Positions 3,001-63,900 of a stretch of 64,000 nt of DNA are shown one piece after another; position 1 is the stretch's first letter; every line of letters begins with the position of its first letter. The translations under genes were made by a program, and so were the position numbers. The stretch is from an uncultured Gammaproteobacteria bacterium (GTDB lineage: Bacteria > Patescibacteriota > Microgenomatia > UBA10105 > UBA927): the NCBI GenBank assembly GCA_964356315.1, contig CAYHHA010000003.1, forward strand, positions 12,010 to 76,009, given 5' to 3'. The notes beneath the pieces are model-generated. The model saw only the letters and a program-made list of their open reading frames with translations. It did not search any database and was not told the origin of the DNA.

Positions 3001-6000
3001 GAGTGGTGCTACAGGAAGTGTAGTTTCCATCTCAGTATATCCCACGAATTTCGCTCTATCAAATCCTGGTAGCTCAATATCCTCTGGTATCCATACATCC
3101 TGACTTGGCTGCTCATCCGGCGTAACAGCTTTTTTGAAAGAACGTTTTGATAAAACCAGCTCATCACCACCTGGTGCTCGTGAAATCGAATACGTGACCC
3201 GGTGTCCTTCTCCAATTTCAAAAATATCATCTTCAAGGATATAGCGTGCATCCCAAATCCCGGTTTGCATATCTGATCCCAACAGTATGCGACCGGGTAT
3301 CGCACCAGGAGCATTTGCCAACGCGAGGTTTCCAGTCTTTGGATCGATAAAAAAGAGTGCGCCGTTATATGTAAACGTAGTGTATTTTTCTGGCCAAATG
3401 AGCGATCGAAGGTACCGCATCAGCTGTCCAAATGCACGAACCTGAGCTTCGCGTTTCGTTTTTGGAGTAGTATCTATCGTTATCTTTTTGGATTCCAAAT
3501 CAGCTATGAGCTTCTCTTCTGCCCTAAGCCAAGGAAATCTGGTTCGGAGCCAATACCCTGCTCCTTTTTTGAGAATCTTTTGCACATAGGCTGTATCAGA
3601 CGGAGTCACTGGCTTGACCGATCCCTTATCTGTTGTGAGTGTATCTATATAGGTGAGTAAATTGAGGTAAAACTCTCCATAGAGTGCTTCGGTATCGTTT
3701 AGATATGGTGGAGAGATAAATGAATTGGGAGAATCGAACGATAAAAATTGATCCTCATCGTCATTCAGAACAGATGGTTCTGGAAGCTCCCATTCGTGCG
3801 AGCGAAATATAGCTTCTGTAAGCTTTCTAGCTGAATCCGCAAACTGCAACGCTGCCTCATATCCTGCAGGTGATTGCATAGCTTCGCCCAATCTCTCCAT
3901 GATCTGCATTCCGAGGCCTGATTGTATGATGTCTTCGTCAAATGCATGATCCGTGAGGACATATGAGATGAGTTGCTCAAGCTTTTTCACTGCTTGTCCT
4001 TTATAAGAGTCCTTTCCTCTTTCGAGTAACCTATCTACTTCTTTTAGCGTTTTTTCGGTAACCAGTTTGATGTAGGAACAATCAGAACAGCGTCCTCCTC
4101 CCGTTTCCTGTATTACACTCTGCTGACTATTGGGCTTGCTACCATCTTTAGGTGCAATGGGTTCTGTGGAGTTTTTTGAAGCAACTCGTATGACCTCTTG
4201 TATGACAGACTCTTTTTCCGGGAAATTGGCAACCCCAAGATCAATGATCATCAGCCTACCATCTGGAGAGCGTCCGATCTGAGTCGTGGAAAAATCAAAT
4301 AATTCATATCGTTTCGCGAGGGCAAAAAGCCCAGGTAGTTGTTCCAAATCTCCCTCTGTGAGAAAATATTTTTGCATCAAGCGCTCTTTTTCCATGACGC
4401 CATTCGCGGAACTGATAGAAGCGAGTATTTTTTGATAATCCGACAGACCAATAATCTGATCAGTTTTATAATCAGATATTGTGACTATCGAAACAGCCTT
4501 TGAAAGAATAATGTAATATCCACCTGCTTCCGTCATCCCCCATCCCTTCAGAAACTGTTTCATATAGGGATCAGCGATCATCACGGCGATTTCGTTGAGC
4601 ATTTGTATTTGATTGGTTGTCGTCACAATGTTTATCTTCAACACTTCGTTGTTCCCTATGTCAAAGACTTGGCGTTGACCTCCAGATCCGATTGCCGTCA
4701 ATTCCCTAGTATTTATTTTCCTTACCGTTTCCTTCTGAGTTGCTTCAATAGTCATAGGCCTATACAAGCGATGAAGTTCGTCTGAAATGGAATTTTGGCC
4801 CCTCAGGAGAGGGATTTTCGTGAGTGGATCTGAGGGCGCTGGGGATTTTTCTTTAGCTTCAAGCGCTTTGCGTATATACGCGTCGATAGCATCGTTTTCT
4901 GGAGAGCCGCGTCCCGCCGTGAGATCTTTGTACCGTTGATCAGCTTTAATGATATTCATCACCACTTCCACATCACCTTGAGCCAGAAGCTCAGATTGGC
5001 TTATTACTACCTGAGAAATCATTGCATTGAGCTGGTGTTGAGTCGTACCATCGACATTTGCACTATTTTTCAAATAACTGGACATATTCATGAATATATT
5101 TTCCATTACTCCCATTTCTTGTTTATATATTTCAGCAGGTATTATCCTATAATCGTGCTCACCAAGAATATCCGCGATGATTTTCCTAATTACATTGATT
5201 TGGACATCTCCTGCATCCTTGAGATCAAATAACTTTCTATACTGTTGGAACATCACGAGATGAAGATCATTGTAAAATCCTCTCGTTCTCATGCGCTCAT
5301 CCGAAATTTGTAAAAGCTCACTGTTAATTTTCTCGTAGTCAAACGATGCTAGAAAATGTGCGTATTTTGATAGCGATTTGGTTTTTTGGAATATATATCT
5401 CTCTGTTGTTTTATCCTGGTATACGTCCCATCCGAACTCTTCAAAAATATCCAAGTACATCGGGTCAAAGTCTTGAGATGAGGTCAGCTGATCCAGAAGA
5501 ATTATTGCACCCATTTTCGCTTTTCTCGTCACCGCTGAAATCATTTTGATCGGATCCTCATTTGCTATTTCCGTGCCATGCAACATCGCACCCTGGTAAG
5601 ATAAAAACGTATCGACACTATTATCCGGAATCCCACCTAACACATTCCAATCTTCTTTTGATAGCTGCAAACCGGGTTTATGAATATCAATTGGCAACTG
5701 TTTTTCGTATCCGTTATCAATGCCGATAATTGTCGCATCTGGATACTTACGGGAAAATTCCAAATCCGCGACAGCCAGTCCGCTCCCCAAATTGAGCGTA
5801 ACATTTCCTTTTTTAAAGACATCTTGTTCAGTCGGAGATGCAAATGCAGGATCTGCGTCCGATGTTATTGCAGATAAATTCCTAGATCTGAAAAGAGACG
5901 CATATTCCGTCATGTTCCGTACAACTGACCATAGTCCTCTCCCGGCTTCCGTGTAAGTGACGCGTTTAAAAATCCCCATGGGGATTTTCACCGAACCATT

Positions 6001-25644: not shown

Positions 25645-26283
25645 TCACCGTATGCTTTCTGACTGAAGAAACTGCTTGACAGTTTCATCCGGCACCTCAT
25701 GCCCTGGCATATACGTGACTTCCTCCGTATAATCAATATCGTCAAAATATCCCAGCTGTTCACGAAATAATTTCTCATTAAATTCGCCACCAAAAATCTT
25801 TCGACTTTGGCGTATAACATCCGCAAAAGGTATTGTTCGAAAGATTTGGTACAAATCGACGTAATCTTTCCATTTTGCACGTCTCGATAGAGCGTACGCC
25901 TTCATTGCGGATAGCGATAACAGGCTTGGCATGCCGATAATTCCGTCAAAATCGTCAGGACATTCGAGTGAAAATGGATACTGAAGAAATGTCCATTTCA
26001 CCCCTCCAAACGCAAGCGTCAGCTCCTGTTCCTCTGAAACGAGAATACTGTCGATGCCACCATGTTTCCTCAGGGTATCCTGGATGGCATCCCGTTGTAG
26101 AGATTCCTGTGTCATGCAGTCAAAATCCACGGAACGCCGGTGACCCAAATGAAGCGCAATTGCCGTTCCCCCGATAAGGCTGAAGGAATGACGAAACTGC
26201 GCAAGGACCGGAAGAAGTTTATATTGCTCTGGCGCTAAAATATCAGGATGCATAGGCTGTATAATATCTGGAAAAATACGCAA
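25645..26283 (-). CDS. AbiEii/AbiGii-like nucleotidyltransferase (DUF1814-type type IV TA toxin family) – 212 aa; alternative start at M11 (26253)
   Basis: LIGGTAIALHLGHRRSVDFDCMT matches the AbiEii GGTaL…R.SeDiDf nucleotidyltransferase signature. It overlaps the upstream small ORF by 41 nt. Confidence 0.55.
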   Translation of the reverse strand: MRIFPDIIQPMHPDILAPEQYKLLPVLAQFRHSFSLIGGTAIALHLGHRRSVDFDCMTQESLQRDAIQDTLRKHGGIDSILVSEEQELTLAFGGVKWTFLQYPFSLECPDDFDGIIGMPSLLSLSAMKAYALSRRAKWKDYVDLYQIFRTIPFADVIRQSRKIFGGEFNEKLFREQLGYFDDIDYTEEVTYMPGHEVPDETVKQFLQSESIR

Positions 26284-26521
26284 TCGTTTTTTTTCGGAGG
26301 TTTACGCGGTTACTCGAACACATCTCTTCAAATAATTGTTTTGTTTTTTGGATACCGAGCGTGCGCTCCGTCAACACATAATCATCCCAATCCCCATAAT
26401 TGAGGATATGTTCAAGGATGCTCTTTTCTGATAGCCGGGATGTGTCTGCCAAATACCAGGTCAAATATGGCTTTTTTTGAAGCATTTCACTCAATGTTTC
26501 CATACATGCAGTATACCTCAT
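26243..26521 (-). CDS. Small hypothetical protein (92 aa) translationally coupled to the AbiEii-like gene; putative cognate antitoxin/partner
   Basis: The ORF sits directly upstream of, and overlapping, the nucleotidyltransferase gene. GAGG lies 13 nt before the internal ATG (METLSEM…). No recognisable domain. Confidence 0.4.
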   Translation of the reverse strand: MRYTACMETLSEMLQKKPYLTWYLADTSRLSEKSILEHILNYGDWDDYVLTERTLGIQKTKQLFEEMCSSNRVNLRKKTIAYFSRYYTAYAS

Positions 26522-26537
26522 TTTTACGAATCATGAG

Positions 26538-26567
26538 TAGTGTACACCCCTAAACTATTGAATATCA
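26538..26567 (-). promoter_or_regulatory. Candidate sigma70-like promoter for the small-ORF/AbiEii pair (minus strand TTGATA-18-TACACT)
   Basis: In the AT-rich 150-bp gap between the ATPase gene and the 92-aa ORF. Confidence 0.25.
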
Positions 26568-26673
26568 ATCACCATGCTTTACTATATCGATATATATCAT
26601 ACTATGATCTATATGGATCTTTTCAGATAGAAACTCTAGTTTGCGATTTGCGTGCAAAATCATAAAGCTCACT

Positions 26674-27900
26674 TCATACTGGGCGGGTAACAAAGTCCAA
26701 CACATTCTCACGATGGATTATCGCATAGGTAGAATCGGGATAATTTGTACTCCACGCGACCGGCGCCTTTTGTTTTTTCACCGTCCACTTTAATTCAAAC
26801 GCCTGCAACTTTCCTCCAGCATCTTCTACATAATCCACCTCTGCGCCATCCCACGTGCGCCAAAAATATGAGTTCACAGAATTTCCTGAATTATTCATAC
26901 ATTTGATCCGCTCTGATATGCAGAAATTTTCCCACAACGCTCCTGTGTCGGTCCGAAGTGACAGCGGGTTCACGTTATTGATAATGGCGTTGCGTACACC
27001 CACATCATAAAAGTATACTTTTCTCAGCTTCGAAAGTTCTTTCCGATGATTTCGCGCCAGGGGCCGTAGGGTAAATATAATAAACGCCTGTTCTAAAATC
27101 CGGATATAATTCATAACTGTTTTCTGATCAATGCCTAGCAAATTGCTCAGCTCAGTGCCTGATACTTCGTTCCCGATCTGTAACGCCAACGCCTGTACGA
27201 GTTTTTCTAAAATATCCGGATTTTTAATCCGCTGATATCCCAATACGTCTTTATACAGATAACTTTTGGTCAATACGTTCATCGACTCCCCCGCCTCACT
27301 TGGTTTGAGAATAGCGCTTGGATACATACCATATTGGAGATATCGCTCAATAAGTCTCATGGTCTCCAGTCGGTCCGATACTGAAAGAATCTCATCAAGA
27401 GAAAATGGATATAAATAAAATTCATAAATTCGGCCGGTTAATGGTTCTGAAATTTTATTTGACAGATCAAATGAGGAGGAGCCGGTCGCTATAATCTGCA
27501 TCCCCGGTGATGTATCAATGAGTAATTTCAGCGTGAGCCCAATATCAAGCACACGCTGCGCCTCATCGAAAACTACGAGCTTTTTATCTCCGATATAGGC
27601 ACGAAGTTCGGTTGATGTTTTATGTGTGAGCGCCTGGCGAACATCCGGCTCGTCGCAATTTAAATATACCGAATCGGTTTTATAGTGATTTAATATCTCG
27701 GTGACAAGAGTAGTTTTCCCAACCTGACGGGCTCCGTAGATTATAATTGCCTTCCCTTGGAACAATTTCGCTTCTACTCTCGGTTGAATACTCCGTTTAA
27801 TCTGCATAGTTAAGTGATTCAATTCCTTTAACTTATACCTATTTAGAGGATTTGTCAACAAAATCGGAAAGTCCCCTTTATATATCTCTTCTTTCCACAT
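26674..27900 (-). CDS. AAA+ ATPase of the AAA_14/DUF4143 family (ATP-binding protein); 408 aa from first ATG, 377 aa if it starts at MQIKRS… (27807)
   Basis: Walker A IIIYGARQVGKTTLV and Walker B LVVFDEAQ, with the overall architecture typical of DUF4143 ATPases. AGAGGAGAGGA lies upstream of ATG 27900. Confidence 0.7.
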   Translation of the reverse strand: MWKEEIYKGDFPILLTNPLNRYKLKELNHLTMQIKRSIQPRVEAKLFQGKAIIIYGARQVGKTTLVTEILNHYKTDSVYLNCDEPDVRQALTHKTSTELRAYIGDKKLVVFDEAQRVLDIGLTLKLLIDTSPGMQIIATGSSSFDLSNKISEPLTGRIYEFYLYPFSLDEILSVSDRLETMRLIERYLQYGMYPSAILKPSEAGESMNVLTKSYLYKDVLGYQRIKNPDILEKLVQALALQIGNEVSGTELSNLLGIDQKTVMNYIRILEQAFIIFTLRPLARNHRKELSKLRKVYFYDVGVRNAIINNVNPLSLRTDTGALWENFCISERIKCMNNSGNSVNSYFWRTWDGAEVDYVEDAGGKLQAFELKWTVKKQKAPVAWSTNYPDSTYAIIHRENVLDFVTRPV

Positions 27901-45900: not shown

Positions 45901-48900
45901 AGCGTCCGTTAAATCGGATAGTAACGTTTTAAAATCAACATCGACGACTGGCGCAGCAATAACTACCACTACTGGCTTCTGCGCGTTTGCCGGAGGCGTT
46001 GGAACTGGTGTTAAATAATACATCTTCGCACCTTTGTAATATGCTTCAATAGTCGCCGTCTCAGTCAGGGCCATTCCGTTGTATTTAAATAATCCATATA
46101 CCGTATCATCTCCCACATGAAATGTGCCTGATACAACATCATAGACACCATAATCTTCTAAAAACTGTAGTAGAGAGCTAACAGACCGATATTCCACCCG
46201 AGATCCTAAGTCTACCGCAATCACCAGATCCTTCCCTGCACTTTTGGTTAACCACGCCTGCATCGTACGTTTAAATTCAGCGAAGTTTGAAAATACAAGC
46301 GGAGCTTCAGAAGTGACCACCTCATACTCGGGTTGTTTAATAAAAACTGCCGTTGACAGGCGATTTTTTCCTGCCTGTATCTCATTTATCGCATATTGAA
46401 TTTCTTCTGGAGTATTTGAATGTTTTGCGACAGCTACATCAAGTATTGTTTTACGCGCTTTCAAATTGATAAAGCTTTCTCTCAACTCCTGTACATTCGC
46501 GCTATTTTCAAAACCAAACTCAGTCAATACCTTCAAAAATGGATCTGAAACTCCCAATACTGCATTTATATACGTCAAGTCGTTAGACTTTTTCAGAGAA
46601 TCAATACTCACCTTCAATTCCGTGATCATCAATGCAAATTCGTTTACATTCCCCTTACTAATTTCTATTGAATGATTCTTATACACATCTGCAAATGGAT
46701 TTTGCGATCGAATCGTTTTCTGGATATGACCGTCCAACCTTTTATACAGAATAGGCCGTAATTCATCTAGGGATTTCCATTTTTCAATAACCGGCTTTAG
46801 CGTCATGACAATTGCATCGATATTCGCTTCGTCTCGAATCTTGCCAAACGCATCTATAACCTGTTTCACAAATGAATCAGCTTGAGGCTGAGCATTAAAT
46901 GTTGACACAGCGCTCTCCCATGAAGCAATAGACAAAGCTGTCGCAGTCTTCACCGCGGCCGCAAGTGCAACTGTATCAGTGGTGGTATTGGCATTCTGCA
47001 ATGCGGTTAGTAATTCATTAAATACCGCTTGAGCAACAGAGGATTGACTCTCCCCCGTCGCATTGATCGCTTTTAATTTCTTATTCAATTGGGCTACCGT
47101 TTTGTTGAAATCAGTTATTTTCTTCACAATGCTTGTAAATGGATGAACACCAGTCCACTCAGATTGAATAATTGAGGCAATCTGCCCGAACCATACTAAT
47201 TCATCTGCAGCTGTTCTAGTTCTAAGTGTTCTTTGCAGTTCACGGGTAAAGAGTGTTAGGTATTTCTGTATCACTTTTCGAGCGTCGCCAACACTGGAAT
47301 CTGCGGTAATTGTAGATAAGAGATCAAGTAACGCTTGATCTTTTGTGTTTGCCTTAAGAGCGTCGATTGCTCTGTTCATGTCCGCTAAATCCTTTGCATT
47401 TGCTAGCATATCCTTTGAATATGAAGTTATTTCTTTGGATGTATATCCAAGCTGTGTAAGAATTGCTTCGTATGAGGCTATAACTTGTGCTGTTTCGAAA
47501 TTTGGATCAGCATATAAGCCTACATACAACTCTCTTAATGTCATAGGATCTATCGTTTCCTCTATTAAATCTGTAAGTGCTCCAGTAGCTTTTTGTGCGA
47601 GAGCAAGTGCCTCAGGATTTTCAGCATCGCGATCCTCGTCTTTTACCATAGCGCTGATAAGCATTGAGGTAGGGCTTTGTATATCTCCTGTAATGACTGC
47701 TACTTCTGCTGAAATATCCCTAATAGTTTCAATAACATATGATTTTCTCTCGCTTGGTCCTGCCGGTAGCTGGTGAAGTCTTATGTATGCTGCTGCTATC
47801 ACTCCAACATAATCATTTGCCTGAATATATTCTTCAGGAATGTTGATGCCAAGTTTTTCCAGATCTTGTAACAGATCTTTGTATAACCGTATTGCCCAGG
47901 CTTTGTTTCTTTTTTCCTTGAGAGACGCAATAGACTGTGTTAACTTCGTGGTTCGGGAAATCACATCGTATACTGGTAATTGTGTCTTTAGGTCAGTCTG
48001 AATTGAATAAAGAACCTGCGACCAGAAAGATAGTGTTTGGCGGTCTACCTGTGCGCCTCGAGTATTTTGCTCAGCTTCACGTACAACAACTTTCACCAGT
48101 TCTGCAATTCCTTTCACACCCGTGGATTGCGCGCTATTTATAAGTTTTGCAACTGCGGCAGGTACATTCCCTTCAAATGCCGGGAGAAGTGTTTGTTGTA
48201 TAAATTCATTTACTCGTGCGATCTCACCATTTTCTTTTCCGAGCGCGTATTGAGTGCTTAGTTCTGTGCGAAGCGATGCTGCTGTCCAACGTGTTTTTGC
48301 TCCAATACGATGCACATCGGTAAGCTGAACTCCCAATGCATTTAACCGTTTGTTAAGCTTTTCGATTGTATCAGAAGCCTGTTTGACGCCATCATACCCC
48401 TGCTTTTCTACATCACTAAGACTCATCGCAATTACATGATGAACTACATTCATTTTCTGATTGGCTATATATGCTCGAAGCGGTGCAACACGACCTCGAA
48501 GAGAGATAAGTGTGTTATCTGTCTCTATCCTTTTGAGATCTGCTTCAATACGGGCCGGAGTGTCGGATAGGAACCATGCCTCATCCAGATCTTCTGTTTC
48601 TATGCTCTGCATAATTGCGCTTAGAATAGTGCGATCCATTTGAGCCTTTCCCAAGCGGGCATTGAGAGTGGTTATGAAAGTTTTTGTGGTTTGTGCAACC
48701 CAAAACGAACGCACAGCTTCAGGAATTGCTTTACCGTCAAATTTCGCGGCTTTAGCAACTGCTGTTAGTTGAGTTACGGCTTCTGTATATGGATCATCGG
48801 CAGCCAAAAACGCTGTTTCAACTTCTTCCCGTTTGCGGGCAAGCGCACCTACCATTGCTCTATCCATGCCATTTGCTTTTGTTTTTGCGGCTTCGAATAC

Positions 48901-51900
48901 TTTCTTATACACACCAACGCTATCTGCGTCATCATCAGCTAAATTCGGCCTTCCGGAAATAAAATCCAACATGCCTACGGTTGCATTGCGGGATCCCTGT
49001 TCTTCACGCAAAATATTTAACAATAAATCTGCTTCGTTGATAGGATCAGCAAAAAAGTTGACGAATGCAGTGCGTTTTTCCTCAACTGTTGCGGACTGCA
49101 ACTCTATCTTTTTATTGTGTCGCATGTAGAGGATGGTAAACAAAAGTTCTTTCGCTGTAAGATTCCCCATATAGCGTATATCTACTCTCCAAGTTGGATT
49201 CTCTAGGCCATCAACTCCTGCAAGAAGACTAGATATACCGGCATTAAATGTTCTTCCATCACCATATGGATACGCGCGGAGTGCAGAGACATCCACAAAT
49301 TGTTTTGCAGAACTTAGTAGTATAGAGCCGTCTCTGAGTGCAAGTTGGATGCCTTTAAGTACTTGTTTGATATACTCTACACGATCCGCAGGTGTCAGAT
49401 CGTTTGCCAGTGCAGCTCGCACGATAAGCTCTGCCCAATAAGGTTGTTCTGCTTTTTTGGTGTCCACAGGCAGGTTTAATAGAGCGTCTTTCAATAATGC
49501 TACTACCACTGGGTCGTTCAGAGCAGCAAGAGCTGCATTAAACACGCCTTCTGTTGTTCCATTTTCCTTGGCCACTTTTTCTACTATCTTTGGAAAATCG
49601 CCTTTGGCGGGAGTTATGCCTGTGTTAGATGCAAAGGCGCTCGACAATACTTCCTCTACCTCTACTTTCGGATCCTTTTGCACGGGTGCAAAAAAGAGCA
49701 TATACGCAAAACCCGTATCATCATTTATCATTCTCGTAAATTCTGCCAACGTGAAATCTCGGGCGACATTTAATCGTTGATCCCAACCTAATATTTTTTT
49801 GTTTACTCCATCATATCCATAGAGAAGCATTGCATGATTTTCTCCTGGGACGCCGAAGGTAGCTACCCCTCCCCTACGGAATGTTTCCATGAGTGCAGGG
49901 ATTGACCTGCTGTTTACTCCCCTATTTCTATCCGATAACGTATCTATTTTTTCACCATAGAGTTCCTCCACAACATGTGTTGCCGTCTGCATCATAAAAC
50001 CGACAGGATCAGCTGCTGAGTACGCGTTGGGATCAGGCTTGTTTGTCGTACCAAATTGAATTTCTATCGCTTTATTTATAAGCTCCGCTTCACCATTTTT
50101 TGGCAATGGGATTTCCGGATTATTCTGATTCAATATAATAATCGCATTTTGAAGAGATGCCGTGACACACGATGAAAAATTACAATTTCTCAAAACTGGG
50201 TTTCTCCCACCATTGTACATCTGTGGTTTCATTTCAGATGGTCGCAGTAATTTAGGACCTATGACAGTAGTTGGCAACTGCCCACTCGCCAAATATCGTG
50301 TGTTGATAAGTGAGATCGCATCGTTGGACGATCCGAATAGACTTCCAGAACTATGAAGCGCATAGGCGAGACTCGGAATTCCGGTAAATTCTACGGTCTT
50401 ATATTCAGGCTCTTTCTTTTTCGCTTCCGCTATATCATGACGAATATTTTGAATCTGAGTTTTGGCATACTTTTGAGCGCCAACTTTTGCTTTTGGATTG
50501 ATTCCAACTATGCCGTCCACAATTTTTTGTATTTCTGCCTCTGCCGTATAGGTAAAGTTAGATTGAATACCTGCTTCCGCAGACTGAAGTGCTTCAGACA
50601 TAAAATCAACACCGAATGAGAGTACTTGTCCAGCTGCTTTTTGGAAAAATCCGTAGGATATGTCGGTAAATTCACTTTCGGTAAATAGAAGTGTTCCACT
50701 ACTGAGATATATAGGAACATAAAAATCAAAAGATAATGCAGCATCGATTGCGGTGTCTAAATCAGCGCGATCGTTTATGATAATCGCACGGACAGCAGTG
50801 GCTGGAACACCAATTGAGGCAATAAAATCTTTGGAATCTGAGACCTGCCCTGCGCTTCTCTGTTGCATCGTCTGGTCGTCAAAATCCATGACCAGCGTGA
50901 CGCGTTTTTCTGCTGCAGTGCTAACACCATATTCTTTTGCTTTTGTTCTATTTATCACATCTATCGGCGTATCTTTTTGGAAAATTTGTCCCGGCTTTGA
51001 CATAAATACTGCATTTGGGATAGTCCCTACACTTCCGTAATAATCCGCTGCTAGGACACCATATTCACCCTTGTCTGATACCTGAGCCAGCGGGACACCG
51101 TGAAGTACTACATTTCCCGTTCCTTTTTGATCAAAGAGATTATTTTCCGCCACTAGTTGGACATTTCGGTCGTGAGCCTTCTGTACCGCTGCCGGGTCAT
51201 GACTTTGGTTTGCAATCACAAGTGCTTCGTCTATAAACAATTTTTCCAGGTTACCGTTATAGTCACTTACCTGTTTGTTACTTGGTAGTGAACGGATCGT
51301 GCTTTGACTCTGCATTGCTGTAGATCCCGATTGTGCAGCGCGTACCAGTTGTCGTATGGCATCCTCGCGTGGATCCCCAAAAACAAGACCAACTTTCTTC
51401 GTAGGAGCAGCTACTCCACGAGCGGCATCTAGAACACTTCGCAGATCCTTCAGTGATTGATTTACTCCCTTAACCGGGAATGCTGCATTCGCAAATTCGT
51501 TTGCAACAAAGGCTATCATACTGACACGTTTTGTGCTCTGCAGTGCTGTGATAGCATCTGTTATCTTTAGTACTCTTGGGGCATACTTTAGACCCACTGT
51601 TTTCCATTGTTGTGGAGATAATCTGGCAAGTGTGGTGAGCGCAGTCTGCGCCTTTTTCACATCTGGAGCTTTCCCGCTTTCAATAGCACTTTGCAGGTCT
51701 TTGAGAGCTTTTGCATATTCTTTTTCGGTAACGTCTGCCGGTTGAGATTGTTTTTTCCAAATCATAGATTTTCCATGCCAATCCCCACTTCTCATATCTC
51801 CTGATCTCAGTGCCAGCGCAAATCCAAATTTCTCGTACATAGAGACGAGCACATCTATATCTGCCTCATCCAATATTGTTCCCTTAGCTATCGGCAAACC

Positions 51901-54900
51901 ACTTGGCACTGCCTGAAGTGTGATTTCTTGAAATAACTCCTGTGCTTTTTTGATCATTGTTGTTGCAATATCCTGCCCCTGATAGTCCGGATGCACGATC
52001 ATCCTATCTGCTTCTGCCTTTTTTCCATTTGAATCTGTTGTATGGAGAGTCAAAAATCCGACTAATTCATTGCTATCATTGCGTACTGTGATTACGTGGG
52101 TAGTTTTGTTGTACGCAGGATCGGCTTGATTCCAATTTTCCAACGGATTCGCATCAGCAATAGATTGTTTAAATGCTTTAATTTCGTCGATGAGTGATGA
52201 AATATTACTTTTCTTCGTTTCAACGACAGGATTTATGTTTGTGAGAGTATTTGTACCGGAGGAGCCCGTTGATGATACTTCATATTGTATCCATTGAGGC
52301 TGACCGCTTGTATCAAGCCCTGCAAAATATAGATATACTGGCTCAGCCAGTTCGGATGACTCAATTTTCACGAGAGGTGTTTCCCCACCTGTTTTAGTTT
52401 GAATACTTGCACGCTCACGGTCAACATTAAATGAACCACCTGAAGGCGTGTTTGTAGCCTCAAATACTCCATTGGCTCTTTTGAAGTATGTGGCAGTATA
52501 TGCGGTCACTCCTGAAAAAATACTGGTAAATTGATCTGATGTAACCAGTCCTTTGTCAACAAGTGTCGGACCATTCTTTATCGTGATTTGTTGTGGGGTA
52601 TTTTTTTGAACTGTTGCTAATTTCTTATTCAACTTCGTTACGGTTTTGTTGAAATCTACGATCTTTTTCACAATGCTTGTAAATGGATGAACACCAGTCC
52701 ACTCAGATTGAATAATTGAGGCAATCTGCCCGAACCATACTAATTCATCTGCAGCTGTTCTAGTTCTAAGTGTTCTTTGCAGTTCACGGGTAAAGAGTGT
52801 TAGGTATTTCTGTATCACTTTTCGAGCGTCGCCAACACTGGAATCTGCGGTAATTGTAGATAAGAGATCAAGTAACGCTTGATCTTTTGTGTTTGCCTTA
52901 AGAGCGTCGATTGCTCTGTTCATGTCCGCTAAATCCTTTGCATTTGCTAGCATATCCTTTGAATATGAAGTTATTTCTTTGGATGTATATCCAAGCTGTG
53001 TAAGAATTGCTTCGTATGAGGCTATAACTTGTGCTGTTTCGAAATTTGGATCAGCATATAAGCCTACATACAACTCTCTTAATGTCATAGGATCTATCGT
53101 TTCCTCTATTAAATCTGTAAGTGCTCCAGTAGCTTTTTGTGCGAGAGCAAGTGCCTCAGGATTTTCAGAGAGAAGTGTTTCGAGTTCTTGATATCTTGGT
53201 AAGAGATCTTGTACTGTTTGTTGCAACTCCTCTACTGTCGATATCGTTCCATATTGTTTGTTTAGCTGCTCAATCTCTTGATTGGTCTTTTCCAACACTG
53301 CTGCATCATATAGAGACTGTGCCTGATCTAATAATTTTGAATTTGCCAGAGAAATAGCACGAGGTGTAACACCAACTTCTTTCCATTTTAGAAGCTCTGC
53401 TTTTTCTATGGTGCCGTCATACTCAGGATCATTTTCCCACGCGGCTGCAATATCTGTAGCATATGCTGTGACTGTGGAGGCAAACACTTCGCCCCGCAAT
53501 TTGGTAAATGCAGCATTTGCTTCATCCACCTGACGCTGCATCTTAGCTGTATTTATATCTCTTTGAACGATAGCTCCAATTAGGGCACTGGCATCCTTAA
53601 ATCCTTCAAGGGTTATGTCTGGTTGTGCGAGAATTTGTGATACTTCACCAAGCGCTTCGGTTACGCGAGTTTTTGCCTCATTTTGTTTTGTTGGCACCAG
53701 TGGCTTTAACAATCCCTGCAATTTTCTTAAGCCTTCTTTGAGTCCATTTGGAGCTATACCAATCAGACGAGAAATTTCCTGTTCCAATGGTATTGCCCTA
53801 TCTACCTTAAGATTATTATTTGCGATGGTCATTTGGACTAATTCATAAAGAGCAACGGAGATAACATTATTGATGGTACTATCCGTATAGCTTGGCCCAT
53901 CAAGCAGACCGTCATATTCTGGGAATATTTTGCGCAACTCTGTCAAGATTTCTTGTGCTTTCACAGTAGATGCCACCGATTTTTGTGTTCCTGGAATAAA
54001 CTGTATGACTTTTTTGCCTCCTGGTGCCACCGGTGCCTGTTGGATAACAGGAACAGCTACAGTCTCAGAGGATTTCGGAAGCTTTGATACTCTCATGACA
54101 GCTACAGACACATCATCCGGTGCTTTTGGTCCTCGAGATTCCACTATTGGCTTGATCAGATTAAATATACTTCGTTCTATCTCAAGTGGGCTACTGCCTT
54201 TTCCTGCTTTGACCATGTGTTCTGCGTAGCTTTCTGTCTTGGTGCTATCTTTTGAGAAATATTTATGCAAACCGTCTGATGAGATTAGGATGGTGTCACC
54301 TTCCGTGACCGCAAATGAGGTAATTTTTGCTCCCCAGAATGCGTCGCGGCCGAGCATGTTTGGAATTAGACCCATGGTACCCGTTGATTTCATCGCATAC
54401 ATATCCTGGTACGCTGATGAGCTTGGATAGTCAGGGCCATTTTGTTTTTGTGTCCAGGTATTTACTTCGTCCAGTTCATACACTTTTCCATCACGGCCAA
54501 ACATAATATCTCCATCTCCTACCCGAATGGTAAACACATACCCGGCAGGATGGATAAACGCACCTGTGTATGTGGATGCGCCATCCTCACCAAATTCATC
54601 CATCACTTTTCTGTTTATTTCAAATGCCTGTTGTTCCAGGAAGGACTGCACTTTGTTTAGCGGCAGTTTTTTTGCTTCTGCCTTTACCTCTTCCATCAGA
54701 TCAGCTATATAACGGGCGCCCTCAGGGGAACGCGAGACATGCTTACTTGATACACCGTCAGCGGATCCTATAGATGCCGGTTTTACTGCTATAGCGTCTT
54801 CTCCTGACTTTTTGGACTTTGGTTTGCTTACATGGACTGCAGCGATAACGCCATTTGGCCCGCCTTGTTCCATAGTTATGTTACCCTCCGACTGGTTATC

Positions 54901-57900: not shown

Positions 57901-60900
57901 TCGCTGGTCAACTATACCGAGCTTCCCTACGATCGCTGTCTCTACTCCTAGGCCTGCTACCGGTAAACCACCAGCTGCAACCATTGTTTCCCAATCTTTT
58001 ATTTGCGCTACGATATCTTTGGCAAAAGCATCTGCGCGATCTTGCAAAACAGATACCTCAATTGTTGGAGAAATACCGGTAGTAGTAGCCGTTTTCAATA
58101 AATCTAATATTGTTTTTATAGCTGTTGGATCGGCAAGTGTTGGAGCGGTTATACCAGCTTGGATAATAGCTGGCGTATTTGCTACTACAACTGCATCCAT
58201 AGCAAGACGTAAGGCAAATAATCGCTTCGCAAGTGCAACAACGATCGCCATTTCATCGTTTACCGTTTGTGTTCGGAGTCCTGAATCAGTAATAGTCGAA
58301 TTAGCAGCAACTATCTGAGCGCGTGCATCTGCAACAAACGTATTTGTGGAAACATCTATATCAGCCAGTCCGCCAACATTTTCAGCGATTACCACTGCCT
58401 TTTTATATTGTGGAATTTTCGAAACATCGCTCGTTCCAGCTATCGATTGATCAAACGCATCGGGTGAAATAAATGCCCAGAATCCACCAGGAGTAAAAGA
58501 AATTCTTATAGCATCAAATATCCACAATGCCATATTTCCCAAAAATTCTGTGATCGCTAGAGGAAGCGGAACAAATTGTTTCCAAAGGAATGCGCCACCA
58601 GTGACACCCCGAGTCAGATAATACGATGGGTTAGCTCCGGGCGTTGCAGTAAGTAATTTTATAACCCACGAAATAAATTTATTGGGCGTGGTTGGATTAT
58701 GTATCCAAAGACCTCGTTGTAAATCATTAAGCTGTGACCACTGAGGTGGATCCTGAAACGGTGACAAGTACGATAGCACTGTTTTCGCTTTGCTAGGAAG
58801 CCACGTGACCGCATCTAATTTTGTAGTTGTTACGACGCGAGCTGGAGCATTTGCCCAATAATCTATTTGTCGCAGCACATCCATCGCAGGAAGCCACCAA
58901 TTTCCAGATACAATAGCAGATGCTCGAGTTCCGAGAAAAATTACAGTTTTAACGATAAAATGCACATTTTTCACAGTTGCGTTACCAACAGGTATACTGC
59001 GTCCGAAAGTTGGAAGTACGGTTTCATATGCCACAAGTGCGAATTGCTTCCACCCTGTCTCAGGCATTCGCTCTATATAGCGTCTCGATTCATTCATGAC
59101 AGCTACTGCTACACCTCTGAATCCACCACCCAGCATGTACCATCCAGCTATTCGGTTTGCCCCCTGTAATACTTGTGTCACTTTTGTTCCATTCGACTGT
59201 GATGCGTTGACATCAGAAGACACCCCAGAAGAGAGAACATATTTTATATACCCAGTCGGAGATTTCGAGGTAGTGCTTGGTGTCATGACATATCCAATAG
59301 ACCCGAGAAGTAGTGAGATTCCTCCAAATACGGCAAATACTTTATTGATTGACCAGACTGCCTTTGTCGCAACCTCTGAGGACGCTACCGCTTCAGTTGC
59401 GGTTACCGTTGCGACAGCTCCCCCAGCTCCCGCGATCGCTCCGATTCCCGCTACAACTAATGCTCCGACCGCCAGTGCGATTATTCCTGCTACCCATCTT
59501 GGCAGAGAAATATTTGAACTCACTGGAGCACTAAACCATGTGCCAACATCTTTGAGCGCAGGCACCACTGTATTCGTAAACCAGTTTGATTTCGCAGGCG
59601 CCTGTGCGGGAGTGATTGAACTCACAGTAAACTGTGCGCCTCGGGCGTTTAGATTTGAACTGAGCACTATCCGAGTCCCATCAAAATCAACGACATCATC
59701 TTTTTTCAACTCAAACAAAGCCGTAGATGTAACATTTACAGGCCTGTTATTTATCAGTAAAGTTTCACTTCCCGATGCGGGGCCAACTTTTGCAACCATT
59801 CGGCCACCCACTTGTTCAACTAATACTTGAATTTTATCTGCTGGATCTCTTCCCGTAGTCAATCCATTTGTATTTGACATCCAGAATAGATCATTAGTCT
59901 TTACTAAGACATCTTTTGTCACAAAGCTAGACACTGTTACTTTCGTAATCACATTATGCATCCCTGCCCCTATGTCTTTTGCCTGATATGTTATTAGATT
60001 TCCTGCCACGTCGATGGTTATCGATGAGCCATCTGTGGCAATAGCGGTCACCTTCCCAGTTTGTTTTTGACCATAGATAAATGAACTTGGTGTTACCGTA
60101 ATAGTTTCTCCAATAACAATTGGAGCGCCATTTTTGTCTAAAATTGGAGCTACAGCTGGAATGACTGGAACTGATACTGGAGCAACACGCACCATTTCAT
60201 CATCAATATGCTTGGTAATACCATTTACGATAGCTTGTATTTTTGTTGGATCAGTTATTGTTTTTGTCGCTAATACCTTGGCAACTTCGGCCTCTAATGC
60301 CGTATGAGCAGCCGTGGCATCCTGCCCCGCCGTCTTGATAATCTCATAATTCATAGCAATATGCGCAAGCGCTGTCACATCAACACCTGGCGCTCCTTGT
60401 GCAACAAGTAAAGAAGAAAGCTCTGCTGCTACTATCGGCAAATATACTTTCACTGCCGAATTCATCCTTGTTTTTGAGTCATTCTTAGCCGTATCCGAGT
60501 CAGATTTTTCAATTGGCGTTTGATTTGGTGTCGTAATGTTAGTCAAACGACCCGCGACATCTTTATCGACCGCTCCTTTTTGACCTGATAAATCCTCAAC
60601 GGTAAAATCGATTGATGGAATAGGAATTGGCGTACCTATTAATGGAACGCCGTTAATTTTAAATCTCGCTTCCAGTTTCATAGTGGTCGTTACTCCATTT
60701 ATCACAACAGGTATTTCATCTCCAATAGAGAACATCTTCTGTTTTTGTATGGTCGCTTGCGTTCTACTATTTGCTAAATAATCCAAATTTAATGCAGTAA
60801 TTGCAATCACCCGTTGAACTCTGTTTGCAGTCGCTTTGACACCATCTGCTATGGTTGCACTGCGCTTAGCAGATTCTATGGCTGGATGAGAAGCACGCGC

Positions 60901-63900
60901 AACAGGTGGTGTTCCTAAGCTTCCATCAATATCTGTGGTTGATCGAGGCGTTTCTCTGGATGTGGCGCCCAAGTCACGCATTTGAATCGGCTCACCTCGG
61001 AACACATCTTGATCAAACAATGCTTTTTTAGTCGCCGTTTCCATAGAACGGATAGAATTAACATATTGATCCAGGCTCTTTACCTCATTAAGTGGCGTAA
61101 ACTTTGCTCCTGGTTCTGGCGAATTAGTAAGCAATTCTTGTCCATAGGATATTCTCTCGCGGCTGACTCGCTCATAATATACTTGTTTCACTTCAGGCGG
61201 GAGTAGTTTGAAGAATTTGTTATTTGAAGGGATGAGTTCAATACCACGTAGAAATGAATGAACTCGATTGATGGTCGCTAGTATATCTGCCGCACCTTTT
61301 GTACTTCCTCCACCGAGGGAATAATTTAAATCCGTCACTTGCCTGGCGTCCGCCATAAGTTGTTCTATGAATATCTTTGTTGTTGCGTATTCGGTTGTAT
61401 TAAATCCAGTGATTAACCGTCGTGCATTCATAGAATCCATAGCCTGATACATGGAGGCCAGTGTATCTCCGATCAAATTATCCGCCACTCGTTTGACTGC
61501 GGAGAGCTGACTGCGGGCAATAAGATCTGTTTCATTTTTATTTAGGAATTCCCGAAGCGTCGTCTGATTGGTGAAGGATGTGCCAATACCCACAATGTCC
61601 AATTCTGAATATCCGTCAAATCGTCCTCGATCACGACCTATTGCTTGGGAGAGCTCTGTCATTGTGGTGTCTTTTCCTGCGATAACCGTAAACTTTTCGC
61701 CAAATTTCGTCACTGAATCAACCCCCTTATGCATGCCGTACTCATAGACAGTGATAACTTTTTTACCTTTATTTGACCCACTGCGATACGTCTCGACTAA
61801 TGCGTCTAGCTCTGCGAGGTCTTTTATTTCCGTTCTCGTGCCATCTTTGGCGATTCTATAATGCTTCAAATTCGCATCGCGTACGATAATGTCCATTTCG
61901 GTGTGCTGTGACCGAATTCGACTTATAAGATCCAAGCTTGATCGTTCACCAGTTGCAATGACGACATGCTGAATATCTCCTCCTTTGATTTGAGTTGCGA
62001 AATCTCCATATGATGCCGATACAACTTTTGATATAGCATGTTGTGATGTGTATGTTTTACCGTCAAATACACCACCAAATATAAATGTATCCTGACTGAT
62101 TCCACCCACACCCATGTCGATGCCATAAATATTTTTAAACTGTTCCGCGACATATTTTGGCGTACCGGTAAAGCCGAATATTTCTGTGAAGTTTTTAAGG
62201 AAGGTGGCATAGTTTGTGGATGTGGCCGATGCAGTGATTGAGATGGCATTTACATCAACCGGCCCAAGCTTCGTGCCATTATGATACGTTGGTACTCCGT
62301 TATATACCTCTGTGCCGATCACTTCGAGGGCCAGTGCATCGTAGCCTTTACTCGGCGTGCGACCGGATATTTGATTTTCCTCGGCAAGCACTATTCGCCC
62401 ATCGCCATTCCTATAATGCACGCCATATTCTTTGGCAATAATATCTACGATTGATTCTGCTGCTGTTTTGCGTTCAAAAAAATCTGTCCGCATTTGTGTA
62501 AGCGCTTCTCTGGCAACTCCTGGGATTTCTGTTTTTTCTAATAATTCACCCAGCTTTGTTTGGTAGTCTTTACCTGTCTTACCCGCAAGCTCACGAGCTA
62601 TATACTCTTGAACCTTTGCTTTTGATGCAGGGTCCGTCATTTTTTCTACTGATTGTTTTAATAATTGTTCATACAATTTGCTTTGCACGCCATCGTCAAC
62701 AATCCTCCCCTGTTCTCCTGTGCGCGCTTCTGTTTTCAGTAGATTTCTTGCGCCATCCAAATCTCCACGTTTTATCAAATCTATAGCGTCTTTAATGAGA
62801 GATTCACCTTTTGTCACTTCATTGAATACCGATATTTGTGTTTTTCCACGTAAAGTTGAGCCTAAATTGGAGCGCTCACCATGGGACATCACATAATCTA
62901 CTTCCAACCGAAGAGATAACTGAGCCTCATCAGCTAGAAGCACTCCACCCTTCATTTTTTCCATGATGGCATACCCCTCTACCCCCTTGATGGATTCGAA
63001 AATGACATCTTTAGTCGTGAGTATAATTCTGGCATCAGCAAGCTCTGATGCTGTGCGTGGGCGCTGACCCTCGAAAATTGCGACCTTTTCGCCAAACACT
63101 TTTGAAAGCACCGCTTCTGCTTCATGAAGTTGCTTTGGGGTCAACTCTGATAGTGACTTCCCTTGTGGCAAATCAACATAATTTTCGATAAACAATCTCA
63201 ACTGTGCTTTATCACTTAAGACCGATGTCACCACTTTCCCTGTAACTTTTGCTTTCATGACAGCGATTTCAGGGATCAGCATAGTTGTTTTCCCGATGCC
63301 TGTGAGTGCTTCAAATAAAATACCCCGTTTCCCAACCTCGACTGTCATAGCTTTTAGAACGACGGAGGCTTGGTTTTTCAGCCCACCCTCAAATCCTCGA
63401 AGCGCGGATATCGACATATCACGCACTGGTACAAGCGTACCTCCTTCACCTGGAGTCAGAGTGATATAGGTTGATTCTCCTGCTTTTGTCGCTTTTTCAA
63501 ATACCACTTTTTGTCCGTTAACTGTGAATTCATATTTCCCGTCCAGTTGGCTTTTGAGAAGTTCTGCGACGTGTTTCCCAACACTTCGATCAGTGGCCGC
63601 TCGAATTGTGGGATCCAACCCGGTAACCGTTTCCGGCGTCGTAGCACCGAGTTTTTTGAACGATAATTCTGTTGGAACGTTTTTCCCTAGTATCGAATCA
63701 ATCTTCGCATCGACACTCACAAAAGAAGATAACTTTCCTTCTTTATGTGTTTCGAGGCGCACTTCATACTCAGCCATTTCCTTGTTCAACGTGTCGATGA
63801 TACGGTCGGATAGTTTGAATTTATTTAGGGATGATCCATCAGAAACATGGAATCGAGTTTCGGTTTTTAACACCCCATCGGCAAGCTGTAAATCTGCCGT

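Follow-up and report, generated by a model that had tools for sequence, protein, structure and literature searches.

A candidate internal membrane anchor in a 14,806-residue bacterial protein with an SF2/SecA-like ATPase

Giant bacterial proteins are almost uncharacterized, and where the parts of such a protein lie with respect to the membrane determines the site at which its enzymes work: within the cell, on the cell surface, or on another cell that is prey or host. We asked what two very hydrophobic segments mean for the placement of one such protein, the product of giant gene B, which lies on the minus strand of a 64,000-nucleotide stretch of contig CAYHHA010000003.1 (the window, to which all coordinates refer). 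As a sequence feature, this hydrophobic pair is real and beyond chance. With moderate confidence, we favor the reading that it forms a helical hairpin that serves as an internal membrane anchor, holding a mostly cytoplasmic giant protein at the membrane.

The frame of gene B is open through the window end, and its 5' end lies a further 8,348 nt out. As an exact look-up of its 408-aa protein (see below) shows, the window matches part of ENA contig ERZ4201063 NODE_68 (123,744 bp) letter for letter. On that contig gene B is called at 14,806 amino acids (aa), which leaves the N-terminal 2,783 residues beyond the window. The open reading frame (ORF) listed for B (27928-63873, 11,981 aa) begins at a GTG at 63873 that is an artifact. 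Residue numbers below follow the window ORF unless marked full-length, the full-length numbering adding the N-terminal 2,783 residues. The initial annotation had placed the hairpin about 1,460 residues into the protein and implied that the ATPase upstream of it is N-terminal. Both positions are artifacts of the window edge: in full-length numbering the Walker A motif falls near aa 3,019 and the hairpin occupies roughly aa 4,284-4,355, so that the ATPase (about aa 3,000-3,600 of 14,806) is internal.

27928-63999, minus strand: giant gene B, part within the window, 12,023 codons plus stop
59398-59496, minus strand: predicted transmembrane (TM) helix 1 of the hairpin, aa 1460-1492 (about aa 4,285-4,317 full-length), WVAGIIALAVGALVVAGIGAIAGAGGAVATVTA
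59344-59397, minus strand: connecting loop of 18 residues, sequence read directly, with one Lys and two Glu, TEAVASSEVATKAVWSIN
59281-59343, minus strand: predicted TM helix 2 of the hairpin, aa 1511-1531, KVFAVFGGISLLLGSIGYVMT

A hydrophobic pair in mid-chain

The two hydrophobic segments first noted at this site are indeed encoded, as uncharged runs of 34 residues at helix 1 (the longest in the protein) and 25 residues at helix 2, with the 18-residue loop between them. Kyte-Doolittle 19-residue means of 2.49 for helix 1 and 1.99 for helix 2 are the top two in the protein. Summed on the Hessa biological scale, the segments score -0.8 and +0.9 kcal/mol, the only windows below about +1 among 12,023 residues, and the next-best window stands at +4.7. 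Eisenberg 21-residue mean hydrophobicity (H) reaches 0.88 and 0.70, the sole values above 0.68, with the rest of the protein at or below 0.60. Helix 1 is rich in Ala and Gly (together 55%) and carries small-xxx-small spacing. The values on these three scales, together with the charge-free runs, uphold the earlier view that the segments are TM-like rather than the hydrophobic core of a soluble domain. Among 1,000 composition-preserving shuffles of B, which served as the test of chance, two such windows no more than 100 aa apart arose in only 0.8%.

Net charge is +1 on the N-terminal flank, +2 on the C-terminal flank, and -1 in the loop (0 if the boundary residue Lys1511 is counted with the loop). 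This distribution weakly fits the positive-inside rule, with both ends of the hairpin in the cytoplasm (N-in/C-in).

Directly C-terminal to the hairpin lies a second unusual region:

58444-59268, minus strand: Trp/Phe/Pro-rich region of low charge, aa 1536-1810

Its 12 Trp in 275 residues are the protein-wide maximum (275-aa windows: mean 2.3, standard deviation 2.0), and charged residues make up 13.8% of it versus 22.6% overall. The further hydrophobic stretches that had been described up to about aa 1,800 are present here as several sub-threshold windows, at aa 1575-1595, 1644-1664, and 1766-1811 (Eisenberg H 0.42-0.60), several of which contain Arg, Lys, or Glu. This region is probably membrane-interfacial, lying along the membrane surface.

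On the opposite strand, a 244-aa ORF with an ATG start runs antisense over the hairpin region (59096-59830, plus strand). The 36-kb frame on the minus strand most likely accounts for it as a shadow ORF.

The ATPase, the tail, and their predicted side of the membrane

The topology of B turns on what flanks the hairpin. Upstream stands an ATPase of superfamily 2 (SF2), and downstream a very long tail with two recognizable enzymatic domains.

60895-63426, minus strand: conserved SF2/SecA-like ATPase module, aa ~150-990
63283-63306, minus strand: motif I, LTGIGKTT, aa 190
62920-62940, minus strand: motif II, LLADEAQ, aa 312
within 62158-62217, minus strand: motif III, FGFTGTP, aa 566
61621-61647, minus strand: motif VI, QAIGRDRGR, aa 743
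54217-54762, minus strand: PP2C-type phosphatase domain in the tail, aa 3038-3219, Pfam PF13672 (PP2C_2), 33.9 bits at E 3e-08 (cut-off 24 bits)
51820-52098, minus strand: GNAT acetyltransferase domain in the tail, aa 3926-4018, Pfam PF13508, 35.5 bits at E 1.3e-08 (cut-off 27 bits)

The hairpin is C-terminal to the ATPase, as the initial annotation had it, lying about 710 aa after motif VI, at aa 1460-1531. The ATPase is the only block of B kept in every relative (32-46% identity), and its core residues TG.GK, LLADEAQ, GFTGTP, and GRDRG are invariant across seven family sequences. In Pfam, ResIII matches all seven members (best E 2.4e-05) and DEAD four of them. SecA_DEAD (PF07517) appears in one member only, below its cut-off (21.7 versus 24.6 bits), where it spans motifs I-III across an insertion; B itself has no Pfam match to SecA_DEAD even at E <= 1, and neither B nor the relatives scanned match the SecA preprotein-binding domain (PF01043) in Pfam.

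Roughly 250 aa long, the insertion separates motif II from motif III, and SecA residues 322-375 align with its C-terminal end. Profile alignment with hhalign against E. coli SecA recovers motif I and, separately, SecA residues 322-409, a stretch that takes in the end of the preprotein cross-linking domain (PPXD), GMTGTA, and EFSSIYKLD. The score of 37.4 exceeds those of all 200 shuffled SecA sequences (maximum 33.3), of HsdR (28.5), and of RapA (19.0), at an hhalign probability of only 17-21%. PDB sequence and profile searches with the ATPase region gave no significant match. An AlphaFold model built from a two-sequence alignment was unusable, with a predicted local distance difference test (pLDDT) score of 38.9, and the Foldseek search made with it, which returned no match at E <= 0.001, is uninformative and not evidence against SecA. 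Judging from its motifs, we read the module as a putative SF2 P-loop motor with SecA-like organization, SecA membership not being established. The label SecA/helicase-like that it had been given is borne out in motif order, with SF2 motifs arranged as in SecA and a large insertion between motifs II and III; no SecA_DEAD match reaches the Pfam cut-off, and the PDB gave no SecA match.

An ATPase must face ATP, which places this one in the cytoplasm. A two-helix hairpin crosses the membrane twice and brings the chain back to its starting side, so the tail should lie on the same side as the ATPase unless further passes exist. No third segment reaches TM threshold by the Hessa or Eisenberg 0.68 criteria. 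The tail extends about 10,450 residues beyond the hairpin and contains the PP2C domain, the GNAT domain, and much unannotated sequence; NCBIfam and PHROGs scans of B found nothing beyond the GNAT domain, which PHROGs matched as an acetyltransferase at E 7.8e-08. GNAT enzymes need acetyl-CoA, which is cytosolic, and FHA and PP2C domains are cytoplasmic signaling modules. Since the PP2C and GNAT matches are of cytoplasm-type domains and lie above Pfam cut-offs, they also argue for a tail on the cytoplasmic side. The PP2C region of B aligns with one relative, L009, in which the order is ATPase, hairpin, FHA plus PP2C. The initial annotation had set the ATPase and the tail on opposite sides of the membrane. 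A two-pass hairpin cannot separate them, and the missing third segment, the nature of the tail domains, and the L009 order all speak against that arrangement.

We therefore take the following path to be the most plausible for B, on the reading of an internal anchor. Two TM helices and their short loop would form a helical hairpin within a multi-domain chain, some 4,300 residues in. Only the 18-residue loop would cross to the outside, and the upstream ATPase and the tail would both sit on the cytoplasmic face, against the membrane. By analogy with the relatives described below, the unseen N-terminal part of B probably holds the real export signal, and the chain may run from an N-terminal TM segment through an exported region to a hydrophobic cluster that returns it inside before the ATPase. 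Membrane insertion, the N-in/C-in orientation, the anchoring role, and the most likely Patescibacteria origin of the organism are what we infer rather than show.

Other stretches of B were recognized by eye, at aa ~1370-1406, ~2860-2965, ~4560-4720, ~10,900, and ~11,100. They include several FHA-like stretches (one of which immediately precedes the hairpin), a Cys...His stretch of the papain/C39 type (aa ~4,560-4,720, GENHAMLLYGYD), a HELSHD zincin motif, and a CheY-like stretch, all without a match in Pfam, NCBIfam, or PHROGs. A 169-residue segment occurs twice in the tail at 100% amino acid identity (52660-53166 and 47116-47622, minus strand; aa 3570-3738 and 5418-5586). The two 507-nt copies differ at three positions, all silent, and their flanks are unrelated, a pattern suggestive of a recent duplication within the gene or of gene conversion, and not of misassembly.

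Relatives and alternative readings

Relatives of B were found through its ATPase. A partial Gottesmanbacteria protein matches the ATPase block at 35% identity (E 1e-80), and ATPase relatives occur at ten loci in the GTDB and JGI collections, with identities of 32-44%. Their giant frames were translated and scanned for hydrophobicity in the same way as B. The complete members measure 3,742 aa (L006), 6,226 aa (L017), and 14,806 aa (B). Most relatives come from Patescibacteria or Gottesmanbacteria metagenome-assembled genomes (MAGs); L006 and L009 are in MAGs titled "uncultured Gammaproteobacteria" (GTDB records CAZQTD010000001.1 and CAYMYO010000005.1), so that either these MAGs are mis-binned or the family is more widely distributed. 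Together these sequences make up a small, previously unannotated family of giant proteins in Patescibacteria-type MAGs, and a limited literature search found no published description of it.

The family shares a plan of N-terminal TM segment, long region, pre-ATPase hydrophobic cluster, and SecA-like SF2 ATPase. Among the relatives whose N-terminal region lies in the locus, four (L006, L007/L015, L009, and L017) have a strong TM segment within the first ~130 residues, followed by a conserved Q(D/E)VRSRA, which could be a family-specific signal-peptidase or sorting site; L013/L014 have the N-terminal TM segment without this motif. The hairpin had been offered as an alternative to signal-peptide-dependent export, an idea that the family does not support, all of these relatives having an N-terminal TM or signal-anchor segment. 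An Ala/Gly/Cys-rich hydrophobic cluster beginning ..RG.(V/L)(I/M) precedes the ATPase motifs by about 650-1,600 aa in all relatives (L005-L009, L013, L016/L017):

Pre-ATPase hydrophobic cluster, by relative: L005, aa 890-1170; L006, aa 1800-2060; L007, aa 1800-2060; L009, aa 1730-1830; L013, aa 770-840; L017, aa 2380-2500

Better conserved than the hairpin that follows the ATPase, this cluster probably forms the main membrane-embedded element of the family. Together with the N-terminal TM segment, it gives a consistent in-out-in path.

Hydrophobic pairs after the ATPase recur, always next to a peak of Trp content, in L007/L015, L008, and L009, none of them as strong as the pair in B (Kyte-Doolittle 1.76-2.30, Hessa sums +1.6 to +3.1). 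L005 keeps a Trp-rich stretch though it has no hairpin, and between two conserved blocks it has 595 aa where B has 1,282; L006 ends soon after its ATPase. On the question of whether homologous giants conserve the segment, the family offers only analogous hairpins. Because only some relatives have a post-ATPase hairpin, and these hairpins do not align with one another, it is best regarded as a variable, lineage-specific accessory and not as a defining feature of the family. Its absence from relatives that retain the ATPase also means that the motor does not depend on the hairpin.

Searches outside the family were empty. No match came from word-indexed homologue searches (queries aa 1-2000 and, separately, aa 1380-1860), from tblastn against phage and plasmid sequences, from IMG/VR, or from a GTDB scan with the B protein alone, and Rfam had none over the whole window. 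Pfam and PDB searches with aa 1,300-1,900 returned no significant match and no toxin translocation domain. We considered a phage, plasmid, or "polyvalent protein" origin of B and rejected it, as no phage, plasmid, or viral relatives were found.

Several points weigh against an internal anchor. The first concerns the helices themselves: Wimley-White octanol values rank helix 1 only 11th and helix 2 4th, many other segments pass as well, helix 1 is unremarkable, and the pair is not singled out. Its standing is consequently scale-dependent, three of the four scales ranking it top and this one not. The TM calls, those on the Hessa, Wimley-White, and Eisenberg values included, are simple window sums, and a single window as hydrophobic as these arises in 24% of shuffles. 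The second concerns independent support. An AlphaFold2 single-sequence model of the hairpin region is unusable (pLDDT 36.4); it is helical in the Trp-rich region and places two long helices at the hairpin positions, there at a pLDDT of only about 40. A full HMMER search with aa 800-1999 against 1.84 billion representative proteins gave zero matches. Within the extent of their sequences, L013 and L016/L017 show no such pair, nor does L005, the closest relative, and phmmer --max found no significant similarity between the hairpin or Trp-rich module of B and those of the relatives. The third concerns parity: the weaker windows at aa 1575-1811 could add passes and so change it. The analysis of B covers the 12,023 residues that lie in the window.

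The parity of the passes is at the heart of the best-surviving alternative, which is in line with the initial annotation: the hairpin would be one part of a bigger membrane domain whose passes are odd in number, completed by one or more of the weaker segments at aa 1575-1811, so that the tail would lie outside the cell and the SecA-like motor, encoded in cis, would help to thread its own chain across the membrane. The sub-threshold windows do cluster directly after the hairpin, in a region whose Trp enrichment is typical of membrane proteins, and the ATPase has SecA-specific similarity running from SecA residues 322-409, the C-terminal part of the PPXD, through motif III. West-Roberts et al. 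propose self-export for SecA_DEAD giants (bioRxiv 10.1101/2023.11.21.568195). We nevertheless consider this arrangement unlikely: every extra window fails both the Hessa and the Eisenberg 0.68 thresholds, several hold Arg, Lys, or Glu, the GNAT and PP2C domains of the tail are cytosol-type enzymes, the SecA identity of the ATPase is unproven, and several relatives keep the ATPase with no hairpin.

A further alternative makes the giant ORF a polyprotein that would be cut into pieces, with the hairpin anchoring one processed fragment. West-Roberts et al. raise proteolytic processing by built-in peptidases (bioRxiv 10.1101/2023.11.21.568195), and the by-eye papain/C39-like stretch and HELSHD motif of B, neither confirmed by Pfam, would suit it. 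Pfam, NCBIfam, and PHROGs scans of B show no peptidase domain, and we hold the idea to be improbable.

It is more doubtful still that the segments do not span the membrane and are instead Ala/Gly-rich low-complexity sequence or a buried hydrophobic element of a soluble domain. The composition of helix 1 and its Wimley-White rank would allow this, as would the frequency of single windows in the shuffles and the want of a homologue or a reliable model. Against it stand two neighboring runs free of charged residues, 34 and 25 aa long, that exceed Kyte-Doolittle, Hessa, and Eisenberg TM thresholds as nothing else does in 12,000 residues, the rarity of such a pair in shuffled sequence, and the analogous pairs in relatives.

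There is only a very slight chance that the hairpin and the Trp-rich region are a membrane-insertion or pore module of the colicin or diphtheria-toxin kind, with which an episymbiotic cell would insert into a host membrane and deliver the enzymatic tail: the Ala/Gly-rich hairpin with its small-xxx-small spacing lies beside interfacial Trp-rich helices, the tail enzymes are effector-like, and the relatives are Patescibacteria, a group that includes episymbionts and predators (PMC8080830), but nothing in Pfam or the PDB matches a toxin translocation domain, the module is not conserved in the family, its structure model is unusable, and no secretion apparatus is indicated in the window.

Very improbable, too, is a bolder combination in which the hairpin and its Trp-rich neighbor are a self-inserting translocation module and the SecA-like motor, tethered to the membrane and acting in cis, threads parts of the chain across the producer's membrane or into that of a host. 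If true, a tiny episymbiont would need no separate secretion system to deliver PP2C, GNAT, and further enzymatic modules. A motor that moves its own chain would be a new secretion principle, which the present evidence does not show.

Neighboring genes and known systems

Beyond gene B, the window contains a second giant gene:

1-24420, minus strand: giant gene A, ATG start at 24420, running off the other window end, 11,849 aa on the contig

Gene A has a hydrophobic N-terminus, a signal or anchor (MVPGSLGLLAGFLFSFAFAL), a Peptidase_M48 match at aa 278-359, and an ABC1 kinase-like match at aa 1711-1913. By blastp it has no similarity to B and shows no paralogy with it. The start of A is closely preceded, at 24447-24543, by a tandem repeat with a 51-nt unit (1.9 copies, 95% match). 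Between A and B (25645-27900, minus strand) are a 408-aa AAA_14/DUF4143 ATPase, a small ORF, and a 202-212-aa AbiEii-like nucleotidyltransferase, a block that recurs in four assemblies of two related samples. AAA_14/DUF4143 and AbiEii gene sets are typical of mobile or defense contexts.

Read as an internal anchor, the hairpin of B has its simplest counterparts in M13 procoat and ATP-synthase subunit c. Both are helical-hairpin anchors with short translocated loops, inserted via YidC or Sec. Like them, B has two predicted hydrophobic helices, a short loop of little net charge, and ends that probably lie on the same side; unlike them, small proteins that they are, it flanks its hairpin with thousands of residues on each side. 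Hydrophobic helical hairpins are also found in the colicin pore domain, in TH8-TH9 of diphtheria toxin, and in the hydrophobic region of large clostridial toxins. The B hairpin shares with these an Ala/Gly-rich character and a mid-chain position in a large multi-domain protein with enzymatic modules, and differs in having no sequence similarity to them in Pfam or PDB searches.

The ATPase is best compared with E. coli SecA (b0098). Motifs I, II, III, and VI are colinear in the two, the ~250-aa insertion between motifs II and III stands where SecA has its preprotein cross-linking domain, and the local patterns G.DY..dG.VVLAE..ISGRTPS..YD.LALE and TNYA.FL.NF.EI.GFTGTP..V..QF...YGI resemble SecA 322-409. 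In contrast to SecA, a free protein of about 900 aa, the B module is embedded in a giant chain, and Pfam prefers ResIII and DEAD for it.

Among proteins of related organisms, the large membrane or surface proteins of Vampirococcus lugosii come from the candidate phyla radiation (CPR) lineage, are very long and membrane-associated, and in these respects resemble B as predicted here. They measure 1,392-4,163 aa and carry adhesion-type domains (PMC8080830), compared with the 14,806 aa and the ATPase, PP2C, and GNAT domains of B.

The closest precedents are the giants of Omnitrophota and some Actinobacteria, which carry divergent SecA DEAD and preprotein-binding domains without scaffold and wing (West-Roberts et al. 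2023, bioRxiv 10.1101/2023.11.21.568195). The same study suggests that adjacent TM regions may anchor these giants and that their SecA domains may export the giant itself, and it cautions that TM-based localization calls are unreliable (10.1101/2023.11.21.568195). A 2026 preprint that applied DeepTMHMM to 916 long proteins found TM helices or signal peptides in 94% of them, and described a SecA_DEAD architecture cluster of 20 proteins (10.64898/2026.06.07.730766). B is therefore a further giant of an already described kind, and the idea of self-export is not new, being in print for Omnitrophota.

Several differences set B apart from the Omnitrophota giants. Its relatives are in Patescibacteria-type MAGs, its SecA signal is far weaker, it has only two strong TM helices in 12,023 residues where the Omnitrophota proteins have "numerous" ones, and no type II secretion or pilus genes are among its neighbors in the window, itself part of a 123.7-kb contig. 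The likenesses are equally specific: B exceeds 10,000 aa and is mostly dark to Pfam, its SF2/SecA-like ATPase is internal, a long way from the N-terminus, and has predicted TM helices nearby, its chain also bears an acetyltransferase and a Ser/Thr phosphatase domain, and it poses the same question of topology. The family of B thus extends the Omnitrophota pattern to another group of ultra-small bacteria.

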